A stretch of 64,000 nucleotides of DNA from a virus, in IMG/VR virus record IMGVR_UViG_3300046319_000183; one strand, 5' to 3'. Within the stretch, counting starts at the first letter, position 1; each line of letters begins with the position of its first letter. Under the pieces are notes generated by a model, which was given only the letters and a program-made list of their open reading frames with translations, did no database searches and was not told where the DNA came from. Shown piece by piece: positions 13,168-53,389 of this stretch. A program made the position numbers and the translations under genes.

Positions 13168-14223
13168 ATGGTAGGACATATAGTAGTTGGTATTGGATTT
13201 GGAGATGAAGGTAAAGGTCGTATTGTAAATAAACTTGCAAATGAATTAAGAGATTGTACAGCTGTAAGAACTGGTGGAGGACCCAATTGTGGACATACTA
13301 TTAGAATAAATGCTAAAACTCATATTTGTTCTAGTATTCCAGCAAATTTTTCTACTGGAAATGCTGGATTTATAGGTCCAAAAGTTTTAGTATCTCCAGA
13401 AATGTTAAAAAGAGAATGCGACCTTATCTTAAAAACATTTCATATGTCTTCTGAATTGGTTGTAGATAAAAATTGCCCAATTATAACTCCTTTTGATGTT
13501 ATAGCCAATCAAGAAAATTCGGAAAGTTTAGGTGCAACTACTGGAAAAGGTATTCATACTACTCAAAAACGTATGAATGATGGAGTAAGTTTTATTTTTG
13601 CAGATTTATTTGCTCCTGAATGGCATATTTTGCAAAAATTAGAGTCTGTTAGAAGATATTATAACAATACAGAGCTTTTAGAAAATGAAATTTCTGCGTT
13701 TTTAGATGCTTCTAAATGGATGATAAAAGCTACTTATGATAGAAATCCTACTTATTATTCTAATATTATATTTGAAGGAAATCAAGGTTTTTATTTAGAT
13801 GAAGATTTTGGTTATTTTCCTAATGTAACTCATGCATCAACAACAGTAAAAAATGCTGTATCGTTATTAAAAAAGTACAAAATTAGAGGACATAATCTTT
13901 CTGATGTAAAATTACATTGTGTAACCAGAGCTTATCAAACAAGACATGGTTTTGGGCCTTTTTCTGAAGAAACTGTAGAATTAAAGCCTGACCTTAGAGA
14001 AACAAATGTAAGTAATGAGTTTCAAGGAGCCTTTAAAGTTGCTCCAATAAACTTAGACCTTTGTGAGTATGCAATAAAAACAAATAAAAGGCTTATTAAA
14101 GAAGGCTTAAATATAGATTGTTCTACGTATATCCATGTAACTTGTACTGAAGATTTAAAAACTTTTGACCCTTCACTGTATCAGCCTTTACAAAGATGCG
14201 GTGAAGTTCAATTTCATGACTAA
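13168..14223 (+). CDS. adenylosuccinate synthetase (PurA) family protein, short form (351 aa), PurZ-like
   Basis: GFGDEGKGRIV (P-loop GDEGKGK). GGGPNCGHTI (GGHNAGHT). IFEGNQG (FEGAQG). TRHGFGPF (TRVGAGPF). About 80 aa shorter than bacterial PurA. The TTGRRRR segment is not conserved. Confidence 0.65.
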   Translation: MVGHIVVGIGFGDEGKGRIVNKLANELRDCTAVRTGGGPNCGHTIRINAKTHICSSIPANFSTGNAGFIGPKVLVSPEMLKRECDLILKTFHMSSELVVDKNCPIITPFDVIANQENSESLGATTGKGIHTTQKRMNDGVSFIFADLFAPEWHILQKLESVRRYYNNTELLENEISAFLDASKWMIKATYDRNPTYYSNIIFEGNQGFYLDEDFGYFPNVTHASTTVKNAVSLLKKYKIRGHNLSDVKLHCVTRAYQTRHGFGPFSEETVELKPDLRETNVSNEFQGAFKVAPINLDLCEYAIKTNKRLIKEGLNIDCSTYIHVTCTEDLKTFDPSLYQPLQRCGEVQFHD

Positions 14224-14713
14224 GTTAAGTTACATTTTAAGACATCAGCCACATTTAGTAGATTCTACTGGGTGGGCTGATGCTTCTTTTATTTGTAGGG
14301 AGTTACAGATAACAGAAGAAAAACTAAAGCACATCGTTGCTACAAACAACAAAAAAAGATTTGAATTTTCAGAAGATAGTAAAAAAATTAGAGCTTTGCA
14401 AGGACACTCATTTGATGTAGATTTACAGTTAAAGCCTTCAGTACCTCCAAAGATTTTATATCATGGTACTTGTAAAGAAGTAGAGCATTTAATCAGAGTA
14501 GAAGGTATAAAAAAACAAAAAAGACATGCCGCACACTTAACTGAAAATTTTCAAATAGCTTTACTTACAGGATTAAGACATGGAGACCCTATTGCACTAG
14601 AAGTAAAAGCTTTAGAAATGCATAAAGATGGTTATAAATTTTTTCTTACTGAAAATAATGTATGGTTAACAGATTATGTACCTAATACATATATTGTGCA
14701 TTATGAAGTATAA
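14216..14713 (+). CDS. kptA: RNA 2'-phosphotransferase Tpt1/KptA
   Basis: MTKLSYILRHQP...DSTGWADASFICREL...KKRFEF...IRALQGHS...HGT, the canonical Tpt1 motifs. Start placed at the internal ATG 14216, overlapping the PurA-like stop. Confidence 0.75.
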   Translation: MTKLSYILRHQPHLVDSTGWADASFICRELQITEEKLKHIVATNNKKRFEFSEDSKKIRALQGHSFDVDLQLKPSVPPKILYHGTCKEVEHLIRVEGIKKQKRHAAHLTENFQIALLTGLRHGDPIALEVKALEMHKDGYKFFLTENNVWLTDYVPNTYIVHYEV

Positions 14714-15962
14714 ATTACAACAAATCCATATAGAAGCAATACAAAAAGAACCTGATAAGTTCAAGAAGAGAGATTTAATTCAAGATATTGGAATAAAGTA
14801 TTTTATTGAAACTAAAGGACAACTTTTATGTACATGGGCTACTGCTACAGGTAAGACTGTATTTGCTTTAAAGATTATAAAGCTTCTGCGAAAACAATCG
14901 CTTGGAGAAATTCATATAGTCTTGCCTACAAATGCTTTGTTAGAACAGTGGCAAACTCACACACAAGGTATTGAAAATATTAAAATTTTCATAATAAATA
15001 CATATAGTAAGCTGCCTCCACAAAATCCTCTACTATTAATAGTCGATGAATGTCATATTGGAGTAGCTAAAGAAGGAACAGGTTTTGCAAATATTCATAA
15101 TTTTAAGCCTAAATTTAGGTTATTTTTAAGTGCTACTTTAAAGAATGAACAATTACGATTTTTTCAAACAATAGGACTTAAAGATGAATTTCATATTTCT
15201 TTACAAGAAGCTTCTTTGCTTGAACTTGTCCCAGAATTTGAAATATACAATGTTTATGTACCTTTTACTAAACAAGAACAACTTTTATATAAAGCTGTTA
15301 CAGAACAAGAATCCAGATGCAAAACTTATTTTTCAAACTTTGGTGTAGATAAACCTTTAGTAAGTGCTGCACAAATTAAAGCTTTAACACAAGAACCTCA
15401 AGCAGTAGGAATAAACTTCAACTGGCTTAGAACTAGAACAAAAAGAATTGGGCTTTTAAGTAATGCTCAAAATAAGCTCGTATATCTACGAGAATTATAC
15501 CCTTACTTGTACAAAAAAACTATTTTATTTTCAAAAAGTATTGCAAAAGCTAAAGAAATAGCTAAACTTGACAGTACCTGTTTACTATATCATTCACAAC
15601 AATCAGCAAAAGTTGCTACTAAAAATCTAAATGCATTTCTAGAATCTGAAAATGCTAAAATTTCTTCAGTTTACAAACTTATTGCAGGGCTTGATGATGA
15701 AACAGCAGAATGTATTTTAAGAGAATCTTTTGATTCTACTAAACAATCAGCAGTTCAGTCATTAGGTAGAATTTTAAGAGTAGACCCAAATAATCCCGAT
15801 AAAGCACCAATGGTTATCAACTTTGTAATAGAGCCTTTCGATGAAATTATACCTAGTGACAGCATTTGGTTACAAATAGGTTTAAGAGGATTAGATTCTC
15901 AATTTATAACATTACCAGAATTAATACAAATATGCAAGCAAAAACAAGAGAAGAACTTATAG
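14703..15962 (+). CDS. SF2 (DExH) helicase
   Basis: Walker A ATGKT. DECH box LLIVDECH. Confidence 0.55.
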   Translation: MKYKLQQIHIEAIQKEPDKFKKRDLIQDIGIKYFIETKGQLLCTWATATGKTVFALKIIKLLRKQSLGEIHIVLPTNALLEQWQTHTQGIENIKIFIINTYSKLPPQNPLLLIVDECHIGVAKEGTGFANIHNFKPKFRLFLSATLKNEQLRFFQTIGLKDEFHISLQEASLLELVPEFEIYNVYVPFTKQEQLLYKAVTEQESRCKTYFSNFGVDKPLVSAAQIKALTQEPQAVGINFNWLRTRTKRIGLLSNAQNKLVYLRELYPYLYKKTILFSKSIAKAKEIAKLDSTCLLYHSQQSAKVATKNLNAFLESENAKISSVYKLIAGLDDETAECILRESFDSTKQSAVQSLGRILRVDPNNPDKAPMVINFVIEPFDEIIPSDSIWLQIGLRGLDSQFITLPELIQICKQKQEKNL

Positions 15963-52018: not shown

Positions 52019-52377
52019 TTTCTTGGCAAACAGTTCAGCATAAACAAAGCTTTGAACAAATATTATCAGTATTAAAAACTCTAAAAGAAGGGTTGGGCAT
52101 TAAGTCGGATTCGGTTAGTCTTATTCCTTCTGTAGCTTTGACTGGAGATGCTTCTGATTTTGAGACAATTTCTCAAAGACTTTTACTAGTTTCAAGAGTA
52201 TCTTACTATCTTTCTACTTTGCAAGGAAATGCTTTGACTTTACAGAAACAGTACAAAGCTCCTGAATTATATGGCTTGTATGAAGAAGTTTCAGAATTAT
52301 TACGAACTACTCGAAATGAAACAGATATTCTTAGGAGTATTCTAAGTTCAGAAAGAGAATTAATTAAACTACGATGA
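52015..52377 (+). CDS. hypothetical protein
   Basis: ATGA overlap. Confidence 0.4.
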   Translation: MISWQTVQHKQSFEQILSVLKTLKEGLGIKSDSVSLIPSVALTGDASDFETISQRLLLVSRVSYYLSTLQGNALTLQKQYKAPELYGLYEEVSELLRTTRNETDILRSILSSERELIKLR

Positions 52378-52706
52378 AAACATTTAAAGATTTAAGACCT
52401 GGAGATGCTTTGTATTATGATTTTAATACAGTTTTTATATATGAAATAAAAATAGATTCTCAATATGTAAATTTCACTGTAAGAACTAATAATTGGAGGA
52501 CGGGAAGTAGTTATGCTACTTATTCTGTACCTTTAAAATATTATGAAGATAGTATATACATTGATTATTATAAAAAAATATTTACAACTTCTGTTGATTC
52601 TGAAATTGTAGAAAAAGCTAAAAATCAGAAAAAAATTATTGAGATACAAAAAATTTTAGACGAAATAAAACATTTAAAACAAAAACTAAATAGCATATGT
52701 ATGTAA
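52374..52706 (+). CDS. hypothetical protein
   Basis: ATGA overlap. Confidence 0.4.
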   Translation: MKTFKDLRPGDALYYDFNTVFIYEIKIDSQYVNFTVRTNNWRTGSSYATYSVPLKYYEDSIYIDYYKKIFTTSVDSEIVEKAKNQKKIIEIQKILDEIKHLKQKLNSICM

Positions 52707-53389
52707 TAGGAGATTCACATGGTTTAGGAAGTTTACTTGATGCTTTAAAAAGGTCTAAACTTACAGGACAATCTTTTATACATGTAGGAGATGTAGGTAT
52801 AGGTTTTGTTAGAGCAGAGATAGATATTTTAATGTTAGATAGAATTACAAAACATCTTGAATCTGCAAACTCTTACTTATATCTGTTAAGAGGAAATCAT
52901 GATAATCCTAAGTGGTGGACAGAATCTTGGTATCAATCTGATAGGATTAAGCTTGTACAGGATTATGAAGTTCTTGAAATTGAAGACAGAAAAATTCTTT
53001 GTATTGGAGGAGCTTTGTCTATAGATAGATTAGTTAGAACTCCACAGATAGATTATTGGCCAGAAGAAGAAATTGTAAAACAGAGTGTTGTTACATACAG
53101 AGAGTTACAAGGTGTGATTACGCACAATGTACCTTTATTCTGCCCTCCTTTTGGTATAAATGATATAGTAAGGTACTACATAAACATGGAAAAAAGTCTT
53201 GGTAATCAATTCTTTGAAAGCCAATTACTTGGAGAAAGAAAGTACTTATCTGATGTATTTGAAGAACTTCAGCAGAACAATGATTTGAAGTTCTGGTGTT
53301 CTGGACACATGCATAAAGATGACTTTCAAGAGTACAAGGGTGTAGATTTTCACATGCTTGGTATAAACAGTATAAAAGAAATAAGATGA
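52697..53389 (+). CDS. calcineurin-like metallophosphoesterase (lambda-phosphatase-like)
   Basis: VIGDSHG, HVGDVGIG and LRGNHDNP motifs (GDxHG / GDxxDRG / GNHE pattern). Confidence 0.6.
   Translation: MYVIGDSHGLGSLLDALKRSKLTGQSFIHVGDVGIGFVRAEIDILMLDRITKHLESANSYLYLLRGNHDNPKWWTESWYQSDRIKLVQDYEVLEIEDRKILCIGGALSIDRLVRTPQIDYWPEEEIVKQSVVTYRELQGVITHNVPLFCPPFGINDIVRYYINMEKSLGNQFFESQLLGERKYLSDVFEELQQNNDLKFWCSGHMHKDDFQEYKGVDFHMLGINSIKEIR

Follow-up and report, generated by a model that had tools for sequence, protein, structure and literature searches.

Interrupted tRNA genes and a conserved set of RNA end-processing genes in a metagenomic phage sequence

The 64,000-nt stretch of viral DNA analyzed here (IMG/VR record IMGVR_UViG_3300046319_000183; hereafter the window) encodes a set of predicted RNA end-healing, end-repair, and sealing enzymes, including Tpt1/KptA, two RNA ligases, a Pnkp homolog, a Thg1-like protein, and a CCA-adding-type nucleotidyltransferase. 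It also carries a cluster of tRNA genes, most of which are interrupted by short insertions. An earlier note on this DNA, made from the sequence alone, had drawn attention to eight of the enzymes and had suggested that the virus either counters tRNA-targeting defenses or matures intron-bearing tRNAs of its own; the second suggestion gains sequence support from the interrupted tRNA genes at 5716-9272. Two close relatives, with protein identities of approximately 85-95%, were used for comparison: ENA ERZ25038395 NODE_13 (115.5 kb) and ERZ28615630 (MUNK22) scaffold_3 (160 kb).

The tRNA cluster spans 5583-9272 and comprises seven genes, five of which are interrupted. In three of them (t3, t4, and t5) the 5' strand of the anticodon stem is split by an insertion of 37-41 nt; the other two have interruptions of a different kind. 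The genes are as follows.

5583-5654, + strand: t1, with a 6-nt anticodon loop
5716-5801, + strand: t2, with a 12-13 nt insertion that lacks the motif described below
5963-6072, + strand: t3, interrupted tRNA; exon 1 at 5963-5990, 38-nt insertion at 5991-6028, after position 29
6649-6758, + strand: t4, interrupted tRNA-Asp(GUC); 37-nt insertion at 6677-6713, between positions 28 and 29
8568-8678, + strand: t5, interrupted tRNA-Asn(GUU); 38-nt insertion at 8594-8631, after position 27; Rfam score 45.5 bits
8712-8782, + strand: t6, tRNA-Leu(AAG), the only uninterrupted gene, with a weak acceptor stem that is mismatched in its first pairs
9165-9272, + strand: t7, interrupted tRNA-like gene (ARAGORN -i), with a motif-bearing insertion in the anticodon loop

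At default settings ARAGORN reports only two tRNAs in the window, and allowing introns adds the call at 9165-9272. Between 5584 and 8782 Rfam places the full tRNA model six times, once with a score under the gathering threshold; four of these stretches measure 85-110 nt, with 18-54 nt occupying 6-15 model positions of the anticodon arm. Removal of a single block, as tried in a deletion scan, restores a canonical anticodon arm in t3, t4, and t5, a spliced tRNA being counted as canonical when it has a cloverleaf, U33, a purine at position 37 (R37), and a 5-bp anticodon stem. The best solutions for these three genes have the removed block ending exactly with TACTTCTA; in two relatives the boundary possibly lies 1-3 nt past it. 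For t3, where the full Rfam model spans 109 nt at 41.2 bits, exon 2 begins with 6029, the anticodon after removal is CAG, and only the spliced form is called by ARAGORN; its acceptor stem has a C1-C72 mismatch. The same operation on t4 (41.6 bits) yields the stem CTCTC/GAGAG, with 5/5 Watson-Crick pairs, and the loop CTGTCAC; the predicted exon junction of this tRNA-Asp joins ...GGCTAATACGCT to CTCCTGTCACGAGAG..., and that of the tRNA-Asn t5, which has orthologs in the related loci L010 and L011, joins ...GGTAGAGCGG to TCAATTGTTAAATGACC.... Across the window and its relatives, default ARAGORN calls a tRNA in 8/8 genes after block removal and in 0/8 before. Seven of these eight spliced forms are standard, and L011_t5 has an odd 8-nt loop; in L035_t1, a gene on a more distant contig, position 37 after removal is U and not a purine.

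The same arrangement is present in both close relatives, and the same insertion position and motif recur in other tRNA bodies on two more distant contigs, Met(CAU) in L035 (127 kb) and Asp(GUC) in L096. Between orthologs that both carry the insertion, a C-G pair of the T stem is replaced by T-A, a compensatory change which speaks for continued selection on the interrupted genes as tRNAs. CCA is not encoded by any of the seven genes, and no intron-less alleles of the Asp and Asn tRNAs were found in IMG/VR. By inspection, the junctions consist of 3-9 nt of single strand, a hairpin of 6-9 bp, and a further 8-11 nt of single strand.

Several other accounts of the insertions were tried and set aside. 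The intron placements proposed by ARAGORN itself (31/32 and others) give loops that break the U33/R37 rule or need implausible variable arms. An Rfam search at E values up to 1 over 5400-9000 returned tRNA only, so known ribozymes in or near the insertions were rejected, and a bulge-helix-bulge at the tRNA junctions was judged absent by inspection. Neither the window nor the genes listed for the relatives' loci gave a match to tRNA_int_endo (EndA/TSEN).

A 20-nt motif, TTATGACTNNNNTACTTCTA (motif A), occurs in 11 copies between 4068 and 9232, all on the + strand. Over the whole window 12 matches were counted against 2.5 expected, a number reached by 0/100 shuffles, and the motif is confined to the tRNA region. 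Some copies lie in the spacers between genes.

4068-8700, + strand: seven spacer copies of motif A, starting at 4068, 5511, 5657, 5896, 6587, 8507, and 8681

Downstream of the spacer copies lies motif B, which consists of NNNNAGTCA followed by a run of T and usually abuts the 5' end of the next tRNA. The two motifs are complementary at 9/9 positions in six of the seven spacer copies and at 7/9 in the copy at 6587. A comparison of 13 distinct leaders, drawn from five sources, shows TGACTNNNN complementary at 8-9 of 9 positions to a partner 27-49 nt downstream (86 nt in the leader whose helix encloses t6). In this leader helix 98% of cells are paired, 8/9 pairs have changed on both sides, and 0/500 shuffles score as high; slid controls gave 15-41% paired. 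The partner was picked as the best complement, and its position is nevertheless constant. At t6 (8681-8790) the motif A strand is separated from the tRNA by 11 nt on the upstream side and its partner (9/9) overlaps the 3' end of the gene, so that the A/B helix encloses the whole tRNA rather than preceding it.

Within the insertions both strands are found in reverse order: the partner of the variable 4 nt of motif A sits 7 nt upstream, forming a hairpin whose loop has 7 nt; single-stranded TACTTCTA comes next and leads into exon 2. In an alignment anchored at the motif end, this hairpin is 90% paired, four pairs have changed on both sides, and 0/500 shuffles score as high. Such covariation between strands argues for a helix at the RNA level and not for a double-stranded promoter, a reading of motif A that we disfavor since its variable 4 nt covary with the partner strand downstream. 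Scans for the motif in IMG/VR, JGI metagenomes, and GTDB genomes gave nearly all single chance matches, and only L035 and L096 proved to be true relatives.

Some further features of tRNA-like genes in these loci deserve mention. The t6 gene (8712-8782) is identical to L010 15496-15566 at 67/71 positions, with all four differences in the anticodon loop (AAG vs CAT), and the L011 ortholog (11313-11425) of t3 (5963-6072, CAG) reads CCA and has three extra nt after TACTTCTA; in both cases the anticodon has been swapped on an otherwise conserved tRNA body. A 6-nt anticodon loop is seen both in the window (5583-5654) and in L010 (13450-13523), and at L010 11306-11386 a long stem replaces the anticodon loop. 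In a phage that encodes a Thg1-like protein 58% identical to that of the window (L175; IMGVR_UViG_3300022200_000020), a tRNA-like gene at 12482-12608 lacks TACTTCTA, and a long helix takes the place of its anticodon arm, recalling tRNA mimics of the YrlA type. Loci L009, L029, and L175 were set aside as unrelated or as different phenomena. L011 also carries an uninterrupted tRNA at 11490-11564 (76.9 bits) with the anticodon CUA (amber suppressor type), which hints at TAG recoding somewhere in the L011 genome; the open reading frames (ORFs) of the window read normally with code 11.

The eight enzyme genes to which the earlier note had pointed are the following.

14165-14713, + strand: Tpt1/KptA RNA 2'-phosphotransferase (PF01885); maximal ORF with a TTG start, the likely start lying near 14201-14216
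25287-25991, + strand: short class II CCA-adding-type nucleotidyltransferase (PF01743), 234 aa, head and neck only
41430-42053, + strand: lig207, stand-alone 207-aa RNA-ligase nucleotidyltransferase domain (PF09414), motif I KMDGEN
43482-44417, + strand: Pnkp (kinase and HAD phosphatase), second complete copy, frame closed; open part 43644-44417
46473-47774, + strand: lig433, 433-aa Rnl5-type RNA ligase (PF09414 and OB), motif I KMHGSS
49053-49919, + strand: Thg1-like protein (TLP) of the 3'-5' polymerase family (PF04446, E 1.2e-27, 96.9 bits)
51246-51767, + strand: probable DEDDh 3'-5' exonuclease, from sub-threshold Pfam matches and motifs seen by eye
52697-53389, + strand: calcineurin-like metallophosphoesterase (PF00149, E 1.1e-9)

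Searches with Pfam, PHROGs, and NCBIfam profiles bore out, at these coordinates, the families that had been named for Tpt1, the two RNA ligases, the Thg1-like protein, the PolyA_pol head domain, and the metallophosphoesterase, and none of the ligase-like proteins matched DNA-ligase or capping families. Seven of the eight genes have intact frames and fall into the families named, that of the exonuclease being weakly matched: its DEDDh motifs are visible, but its Pfam scores of 22 bits fall below cut-offs. The eighth, Pnkp, is the only one inactivated; its T4-type HAD phosphatase is clear, but a TAA at 43554-43556 splits the Walker A box, and 43482-44417 is not an open frame. The set proved larger than had been listed, with cREC, HD, and YqeY proteins, a possible macro-like ORF, NAMPT, a phosphoribosyltransferase (PRTase), and a WGR-PARP-like protein.

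The two ligases differ in architecture. In Pfam, lig433 has a PHA02142 OB domain at residues 14-112 and an RNA_ligase domain (PF09414) at 195-409 (E 1e-7), and it matches phrog_968 'RNA ligase' at E 2e-55. Its family profile matches the N-terminal domain of the Naegleria RNA ligase 5COT over residues 8-115 (E 1e-7) and also the nucleotidyltransferase domain of T4 Rnl2 (E 2e-7). With an AlphaFold model of pLDDT 89.5, Foldseek matches the protein to full-length NgrRnl at E 4e-15 and to the entries 5COT and 6VTG at E about 1e-14, with a TM score of 0.7, ranking NgrRnl ahead of T4 Rnl2, REL1, and Rnl1, with Rnl1 far below NgrRnl and Rnl2. Residues of motifs I, III, IV, and V (K201, E294, E395-G396, K409, and K411) are invariant or nearly so among 38 homologs. 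On the strength of its fold, lig433 is assigned to the Rnl5 type and predicted to seal 3'-OH/5'-PO4 nicks in duplex RNA. IMG/VR yielded no close relatives of this protein.

The smaller protein, lig207, matches PF09414 at E 3.7e-30 (105.7 bits) over model positions 3-171 of 171, with protein residues 35-183, and phrog_24030 'RNA ligase' at E 2e-59 over positions 133-340 of 342, the C-terminal two thirds of that profile. It lacks an appended OB or C-terminal domain of the Rnl2/Rnl5 kind and so appears, within PF09414, as a bare nucleotidyltransferase domain assigned to no subtype; sequence searches gave no solved relative. The C-terminal domain of T4 Rnl2 is required for the 5'-adenylylation step, and lig207 may need a partner. 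No Pfam match to the Rnl1/Trl1 adenylyltransferase family was found among the window ORFs scanned. We know of no natural substrate for Rnl5-type nick-sealing ligases or for stand-alone PF09414 ligases.

Tpt1 matches PF01885 with an E value of 7.6e-34 (117.7 bits, cut-off 26), and its best solved relative is 7KW8, deposited as a tRNA 2'-phosphotransferase (E 1.2e-40). The residue numbering of 7KW8 fits Tpt1 of Runella slithyformis, in which Arg16, His17, Arg64, and Arg119 form the essential tetrad (PMC6097658); in 7KW8 these fall at LRH, KKRF, and SRHH. Alignment to that entry shows the catalytic Arg-His-Arg-Arg tetrad complete in the window protein, at LRH, KKRF, and KRHAAH. Runella Tpt1 acts on an internal 2'-phosphate and is 'ineffective' with terminal phosphates, and by its sequence the window enzyme would be of this internal-2'-phosphate type, with a predicted NAD+-dependent activity. 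In taxa without a fungal-type ligase the role of Tpt1 has been called 'obscure' by Shuman's group. PRTase and NAMPT genes, whose homologs are named nicotinamide phosphoribosyltransferase in the source databases, lie 1.6-4 kb downstream, and these nearby NAD+ salvage enzymes could feed Tpt1.

The Pnkp gene has been disrupted. Its surroundings contain two further features.

42666-42731, + strand: orphan pnk 5' fragment (MSRKNLKVLILIGLPGSG...), found by blastn and by alignment with the related locus L007
42800-43528, + strand: TnsA-like PD-(D/E)xK endonuclease, 242-aa ORF (PF08722, E 8.1e-7)

In the frame 43482-44417, the in-frame TAA lies within the Walker A box (VGLP*LGSGKST) and arises from a 6-nt TAACTA insertion (CCA TAA CTA GGT) in an otherwise perfect GLPGSGKS. 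The longest ORF, 43644-44417, retains part of the kinase and the complete HAD phosphatase (PF25109, E 1e-46; nucleophile motif FDIDGTLA). The stop-carrying sequence is identical in six independent assemblies, so that an error of assembly is ruled out. Among solved structures, the translation without the stop is nearest to 4XRP 'Pnkp1' (E 1.3e-55) and 1LTQ 'polynucleotide kinase' (E 8e-38), and in the relative P0001 a 300-aa Pnkp, 95% identical, has an intact P-loop frame; IMG/VR holds no close relatives. The 5' end of pnk is present twice in the window. The orphan copy, of 57 nt (42666-42722), ends inside the P-loop Lys codon; about 840 nt of inserted DNA carrying the TnsA-like gene follow, and the second copy, synonymously diverged, continues into the rest of the gene. 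The TnsA-like gene, a probable homing endonuclease gene, has no counterpart in L007 and L008, where a 125-aa ORF directly adjoins an intact pnk. The simplest reading is that an endonuclease gene invaded, the flank was duplicated, and the kinase was lost in this lineage.

An intron in place of this insertion was considered and rejected: Rfam gave only chance matches to group I and II introns (E up to 10, 42500-43800), inspection found no U/G splice-site pair that repairs the frame, and on its 3' side the inserted DNA consists of another, synonymously diverged copy of pnk 5' coding sequence. Ribosomes might conceivably bypass these 6 nt, but nothing supports this, and simple inactivation is more likely. 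The known precedent is T4 mobA and gene 60, in which a hop cassette is formed by a 50-nt insertion with matching take-off and landing codons. The likeness lies in a free-standing endonuclease gene that adjoins a short stop-bearing insertion in the coding sequence of its neighbor; the pnk insertion differs in being 6 nt, not 50, and in its unmatched codons (CCA vs CUA). Endonuclease genes are numerous in this region more generally. Free-standing ones lie at 3511-4053, 6129-6572, 39709-40134, and 42800-43528 of the window, of HNH, HNH_2, SegE-type GIY-YIG, and TnsA-like types, and the relatives have other endonucleases (LAGLIDADG, GIY-YIG) at other sites (for example L159 7117-7887, 8720-9493, and 18506-19270).

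Other proteins of the set show the motifs expected of their families. The Thg1-like protein has as its best solved relative 4KGK 'Thg1-like uncharacterized protein' (E 5.5e-57, vs 2e-10 for 5AXK), conserves the carboxylate motifs RLDG and SDE in alignment, and is by these comparisons of the bacterial TLP type. The CCA enzyme (PF01743, E 5.7e-15, 56.2 bits) displays the head motifs GGSIRD, DRD, and RRDFTIN and lacks the body and tail domains; full-length class II enzymes have about 400 aa. NCBIfam CCA and PcnB models match it partially, the CCA models far below their cut-offs and over N-terminal halves only, and it fits the short phage family phrog_24229 'tRNA nucleotidyltransferase' (E 6.8e-50). 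The exonuclease matches the RNase_T and Rv2179c-like families of Pfam at 22 bits, below the curated cut-offs, with DxE, D, and Hx4D motifs visible by eye, and the gene is conserved in L007. The metallophosphoesterase contains GDSHG, GNHD, and GHMH, and nothing was found that ties it specifically to RNA. Additional members of the set, or candidates for it, are listed here.

16336-17202, + strand: PRTase (PF00156)
18769-20511, + strand: NAMPT-like enzyme (PF04095)
21606-22025, + strand: cREC (cyclic-phosphate-processing receiver-like) domain protein (PF20274, E 4.6e-17), present in both relatives
22344-22886, + strand: HD-type metal-dependent phosphohydrolase (phrog_990, E 1.4e-22)
30237-31370: PARP catalytic domain protein (PF00644, E 9.8e-22), with an N-terminus that is WGR-like by eye
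40876-41433, + strand: possible macro-like or phosphatase ORF (phrog_335 'phosphatase', E 3.5e-27)
48312-48788, + strand: YqeY/GatB-type domain protein (PF09424, E 6.2e-25)

The activity of cREC is a prediction only (PMC7824862). The HD protein matches Pfam HD_4 weakly (E 0.021) and has the HD motif YGHDSIED. The macro-like ORF overlaps the start of lig207 by 4 nt; its match to Pfam ThsA_Macro is not significant (E 0.18), and a single-sequence AlphaFold model (pLDDT 36.7) was unusable. The PARP-domain protein is a further NAD+-consuming enzyme beside NAMPT and the PRTase in the same genome. The YqeY gene lies upstream of the Thg1-like gene with one small ORF between, a position kept in L007. 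A separate ATP-dependent DNA ligase is encoded at 26762-27832. Among window ORFs of at least 65 aa, no 2H/LigT Pfam match and no paired HxT/S motifs of a 2H cyclic phosphodiesterase were found, and RtcB, Rnl1, 2H, and RlaP were not found in the window.

The earlier note had proposed to check whether related phages co-inherit these genes, and they do, in the same order. Both relatives have PurA-like (adenylosuccinate synthetase), Tpt1, helicase, PRTase, NAMPT, AAA, and cREC genes, followed by a 180-aa ORF (a positional match to the HD protein), the CCA enzyme, and DNA ligase. The order of a second block, compared in one relative (L007), is a 185-aa macro-like counterpart, lig207, Pnkp, lig433, YqeY, Thg1-like, a 174-aa exonuclease counterpart, and metallophosphoesterase. 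Judged by sequence, then, the RNA end-processing set is genuine and vertically conserved in this phage group. Among IMG/VR phages, the Thg1-like gene lies within 10 kb of an Rnl5-like ligase in 23/80 loci and of NAMPT in 20/80, and Tpt1 is near a CCA enzyme in 3/12 loci. Intron-type tRNA calls by ARAGORN were obtained in only one locus among the 80 Thg1-like and 12 Tpt1-anchored loci.

The window has a G+C content of about 31%, and its long ORFs, all but one on the + strand, are packed tightly. The genes for DNA polymerase, primase, a DnaB-like helicase, thymidylate synthase, and rIIA/rIIB-like proteins mark it as the early/replication region of a phage of roughly 115-160 kb, and several homing-endonuclease genes are also encoded. 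Its sequence was found on 18 metagenomic contigs, and samples that contain the phage include JGI 3300048016, 3300046366, and 3300046367 and SRR35436353, SRR35436665, and SRR35435669. None of the GenBank phages was near-identical to it in DNA, and for the Thg1-like protein and Tpt1 the protein matches were distant ones only. The thymidylate synthase, a 396-aa ThyA (37184-38374), matches Pfam in two stretches, suggesting an insertion; L007 has ThyX (PF02511) in its place (3767-4438), a non-orthologous replacement. The host is probably a member of the Bacteroidota, because a Band_7 protein shares 56% identity with one whose gene neighbors SusC/SusD genes on a bacterial contig, the nearest entry to Tpt1 is 7KW8, with numbering that fits the Runella enzyme, and the nearest entry to Pnkp is 4XRP 'Pnkp1', which we take to be a Capnocytophaga protein.

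The likeliest main client of this genuine and conserved RNA end-processing set is, in our view, the phage's own set of tRNAs, a reading to which we give about even chances. In the pathway that we propose, the insertion would fold within the pre-tRNA into a side hairpin, with UACUUCUA left single-stranded after it. A nuclease would cut after UACUUCUA and at the 5' junction, or a single cut would be followed by 3'-5' trimming, in which case the exonuclease might trim the 3' flap. The ends could be healed by Pnkp, which is intact in the relatives, or by the cREC, HD, or metallophosphoesterase protein, all three being candidate cyclic or terminal phosphoesterases. Since the insertions interrupt the anticodon stem on its 5' strand, their excision would leave the exons bridged by the 3' strand as a nick in duplex RNA, the substrate of ligases of the Rnl5/Rnl2 type (the class of lig433) rather than the single-stranded loop break on which Rnl1 acts. 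The Rnl5-type ligase would seal this nick, possibly with lig207, and Tpt1 would clear any 2'-phosphate from the junction. The CCA enzyme would then add CCA, and the Thg1-like protein may repair mismatched or damaged 5' ends. The broader proposal, that a clade of Bacteroidota phages runs protein-based tRNA splicing, with introns that lack a bulge-helix-bulge and are marked by a hairpin plus UACUUCUA, a phage or host nuclease, Rnl5/Rnl2 sealing, Tpt1, salvage NAD+, and CCA and 3'-5' repair, is a tentative one, and we think it rather less probable than its negation.

Several observations weigh against a role of the enzymes in maturing these tRNAs. The removal of the insertions at the RNA level, and the enzymes that would act on them, we infer from sequence. 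No candidate splicing nuclease was detected in the window by Pfam or PHROGs, the ORFs of the tRNA cluster included, and the insertions form no bulge-helix-bulge. The deletion scan gave no canonical tRNA for the t7 family, and the anticodon loop of t1 has 6 nt. The toolkit genes are scattered over 39 kb rather than forming an operon, and insertions and toolkit have been seen together in one close genome cluster only. Tpt1 is linked to the insertions by co-occurrence only; no 2H enzyme was found, and junctions bearing a 2'-phosphate after Rnl5/Rnl2 sealing are putative. Finally, the kinase frame is interrupted in this phage, so that the pathway would be impaired unless it can do without a 5' kinase (as when cleavage leaves a 5'-phosphate) or obtains one from the host. 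The link between toolkit and tRNAs is therefore offered as a testable hypothesis and not as a result.

Repair of RNA damaged by host defenses is equally possible for the same enzymes, and such a role does not exclude maturation of the phage's own tRNAs. A purely counter-defensive role on the T4 Pnkp/Rnl1 model, with the insertions irrelevant or handled otherwise, is how these gene combinations have been interpreted in print for jumbo phages (PMC7824862). The proximity of Thg1-like genes to Rnl5-like ligases in 23/80 IMG/VR loci agrees with it, as does the restriction of intron-type tRNA calls to one of the 80 plus 12 loci, and the nearest entries to Pnkp and Tpt1, 4XRP and 7KW8, are taken to belong to Bacteroidota RNA-repair systems. 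Such a role would, however, leave unexplained why interrupted, CCA-less tRNA genes are under purifying selection; the Rnl1 of classic anticodon-loop repair has no counterpart in the window, where both ligases belong to PF09414; and the kinase, essential for the repair of 5'-OH breaks, is interrupted in this successful lineage. On balance we regard an exclusively counter-defensive role as possible yet doubtful.

Two further explanations seem to us improbable. Tpt1, cREC, the macro-like ORF, WGR-PARP, and NAMPT/PRTase might instead form an NAD+/ADP-ribose conflict module acting on NAD+-derived signals or ADP-ribosylated nucleic acids, which would leave only the ligases, Pnkp, the Thg1-like protein, and the CCA enzyme as RNA enzymes. 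Tpt1 does lie 1.6-4 kb from PRTase and NAMPT, a PARP catalytic domain protein is encoded at 30237-31370, the relatives carry NADAR, and cRec, Macro, and NADAR have been linked to NAD+/ADPr processing (PMC7824862), while the role of Tpt1 where a fungal-type ligase is lacking is 'obscure.' Yet Runella Tpt1, the nearest characterized homolog, is a genuine RNA 2'-phosphotransferase that acts at internal positions and has its gene in an RNA repair cluster, the window enzyme has kept the whole catalytic tetrad, and the macro assignment was not confirmed (E 0.18; pLDDT 36.7). We give as little credence to the view that there is no pathway at all, the enzymes being independent and partly decaying accessory genes and the tRNAs pseudogenes hit by a small mobile element that carries TACTTCTA. 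The interruption of pnk beside a homing-endonuclease gene, in an endonuclease-rich region that varies between relatives, would fit this view, as would the lack of a usable anticodon loop in t7, t1, and some tRNA-like genes of the relatives, and the motif copies in spacers resemble those of a repeated element. On the other hand, different tRNAs, those of distant relatives included, have their insertions at one and the same structural position (after 27-29); the exons are canonical, with compensatory changes, and the Asn and Asp orthologs have kept their anticodons; and the toolkit has conserved both its gene order and its catalytic residues.

If the tRNAs are indeed clients of the toolkit, they would provide the first natural substrate for bacterial-type Tpt1 and Rnl5 ligases and would explain the 'enigmatic' tRNA introns of phages. 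One genome here combines Tpt1 and both Rnl5-type and stand-alone ligases with interrupted tRNAs that can be precisely defined, and the predicted duplex nick supplies concrete RNA substrates and a short list of enzymes for in vitro tests. Even if the link is wrong, the locus offers a well-conserved example of the known phage RNA-repair repertoire and a clear case of a repair gene disrupted beside an invading endonuclease gene.

The components themselves have precedents. RNA ligases, PNK-HAD, KptA, Macro, cRec, and calcineurin-like/HD phosphoesterases have been catalogued in jumbo phages, together with a CCA-adding enzyme, Thg1, NAPRTase-type NAD+ salvage, and phage tRNAs, and these sets have been read purely as a defense against host tRNA cleavage (Iyer et al. 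2021; PMC7824862). The component list matches that of the window, and as the toolkit has already been described for large phages, the gene set alone is not new: the earlier statement that it goes well beyond T4 is true, but the combination was already on record. The present phages differ in that the relatives, at 115-160 kb, are below the jumbo threshold, in that RtcB, Rnl1, 2H, and RlaP were not found in the window, and in their interrupted tRNA genes, of which PMC7824862 contains no report. With the T4 system of Pnkp and Rnl1, which repairs PrrC-cleaved tRNA-Lys, the window shares a phage Pnkp homolog (kinase and HAD) and an ATP-dependent RNA ligase. It differs in having no Rnl1-type ligase, both of its ligases being PF09414 proteins and the larger Rnl5-type, in a predicted break that lies in the anticodon stem and not the loop, in an interrupted kinase frame, and in the addition of Tpt1, a Thg1-like protein, and a CCA enzyme.

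A kinase, an ATP-dependent ligase, Tpt1, and interrupted tRNA genes in one genome recall fungal and plant tRNA splicing by Trl1 and Tpt1, and the earlier note had argued for chemistry of this type. That argument is weak, and chemistry of this type is not supported, given that no 2H enzyme was found, that neither ligase is of the Rnl1/Trl1 type, and that the kinase frame is interrupted; the window also differs from the Trl1 system in that no TSEN/EndA was found, in insertions after positions 27-29 in the anticodon stem rather than at 37/38, and in a 2'-phosphate junction that is putative. Archaeal tRNA introns that are spliced by proteins are short and may sit outside 37/38, including in the anticodon stem, and in both respects the phage insertions are like them. 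The archaeal introns are recognized as a bulge-helix-bulge and processed by EndA and RtcB, whereas the phage junctions have no 3-nt bulge, 4-bp helix, and 3-nt bulge, EndA and RtcB were not found, and the insertions carry a conserved primary-sequence motif instead.

Closer in biological setting are the tRNA genes of Lak megaphages, which contain short, highly conserved 'enigmatic' introns whose splicing mechanism is not known (Devoto et al., bioRxiv 10.1101/356790). Both cases involve short intervening sequences in tRNA genes of Bacteroidota-infecting phages; the published account, which used eukaryote settings, puts the Lak introns close to the anticodon loop and reports neither a common 20-nt motif nor a leader helix nor any connection with repair enzymes. 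The closest cellular analog is the candidate repair cluster of Runella slithyformis, which comprises a ligase, HD-Pnk, Tpt1, and a methyltransferase and whose natural substrates are not known (PMC6097658). Tpt1, a polynucleotide ligase, and a kinase/phosphoesterase are common to both. In the phage, no methyltransferase was seen, the genes are dispersed, and healing is assigned to a T4/Pnkp1-type enzyme and a separate HD protein; unlike the Runella cluster, it has a candidate substrate, the interrupted tRNAs, in the same genome.

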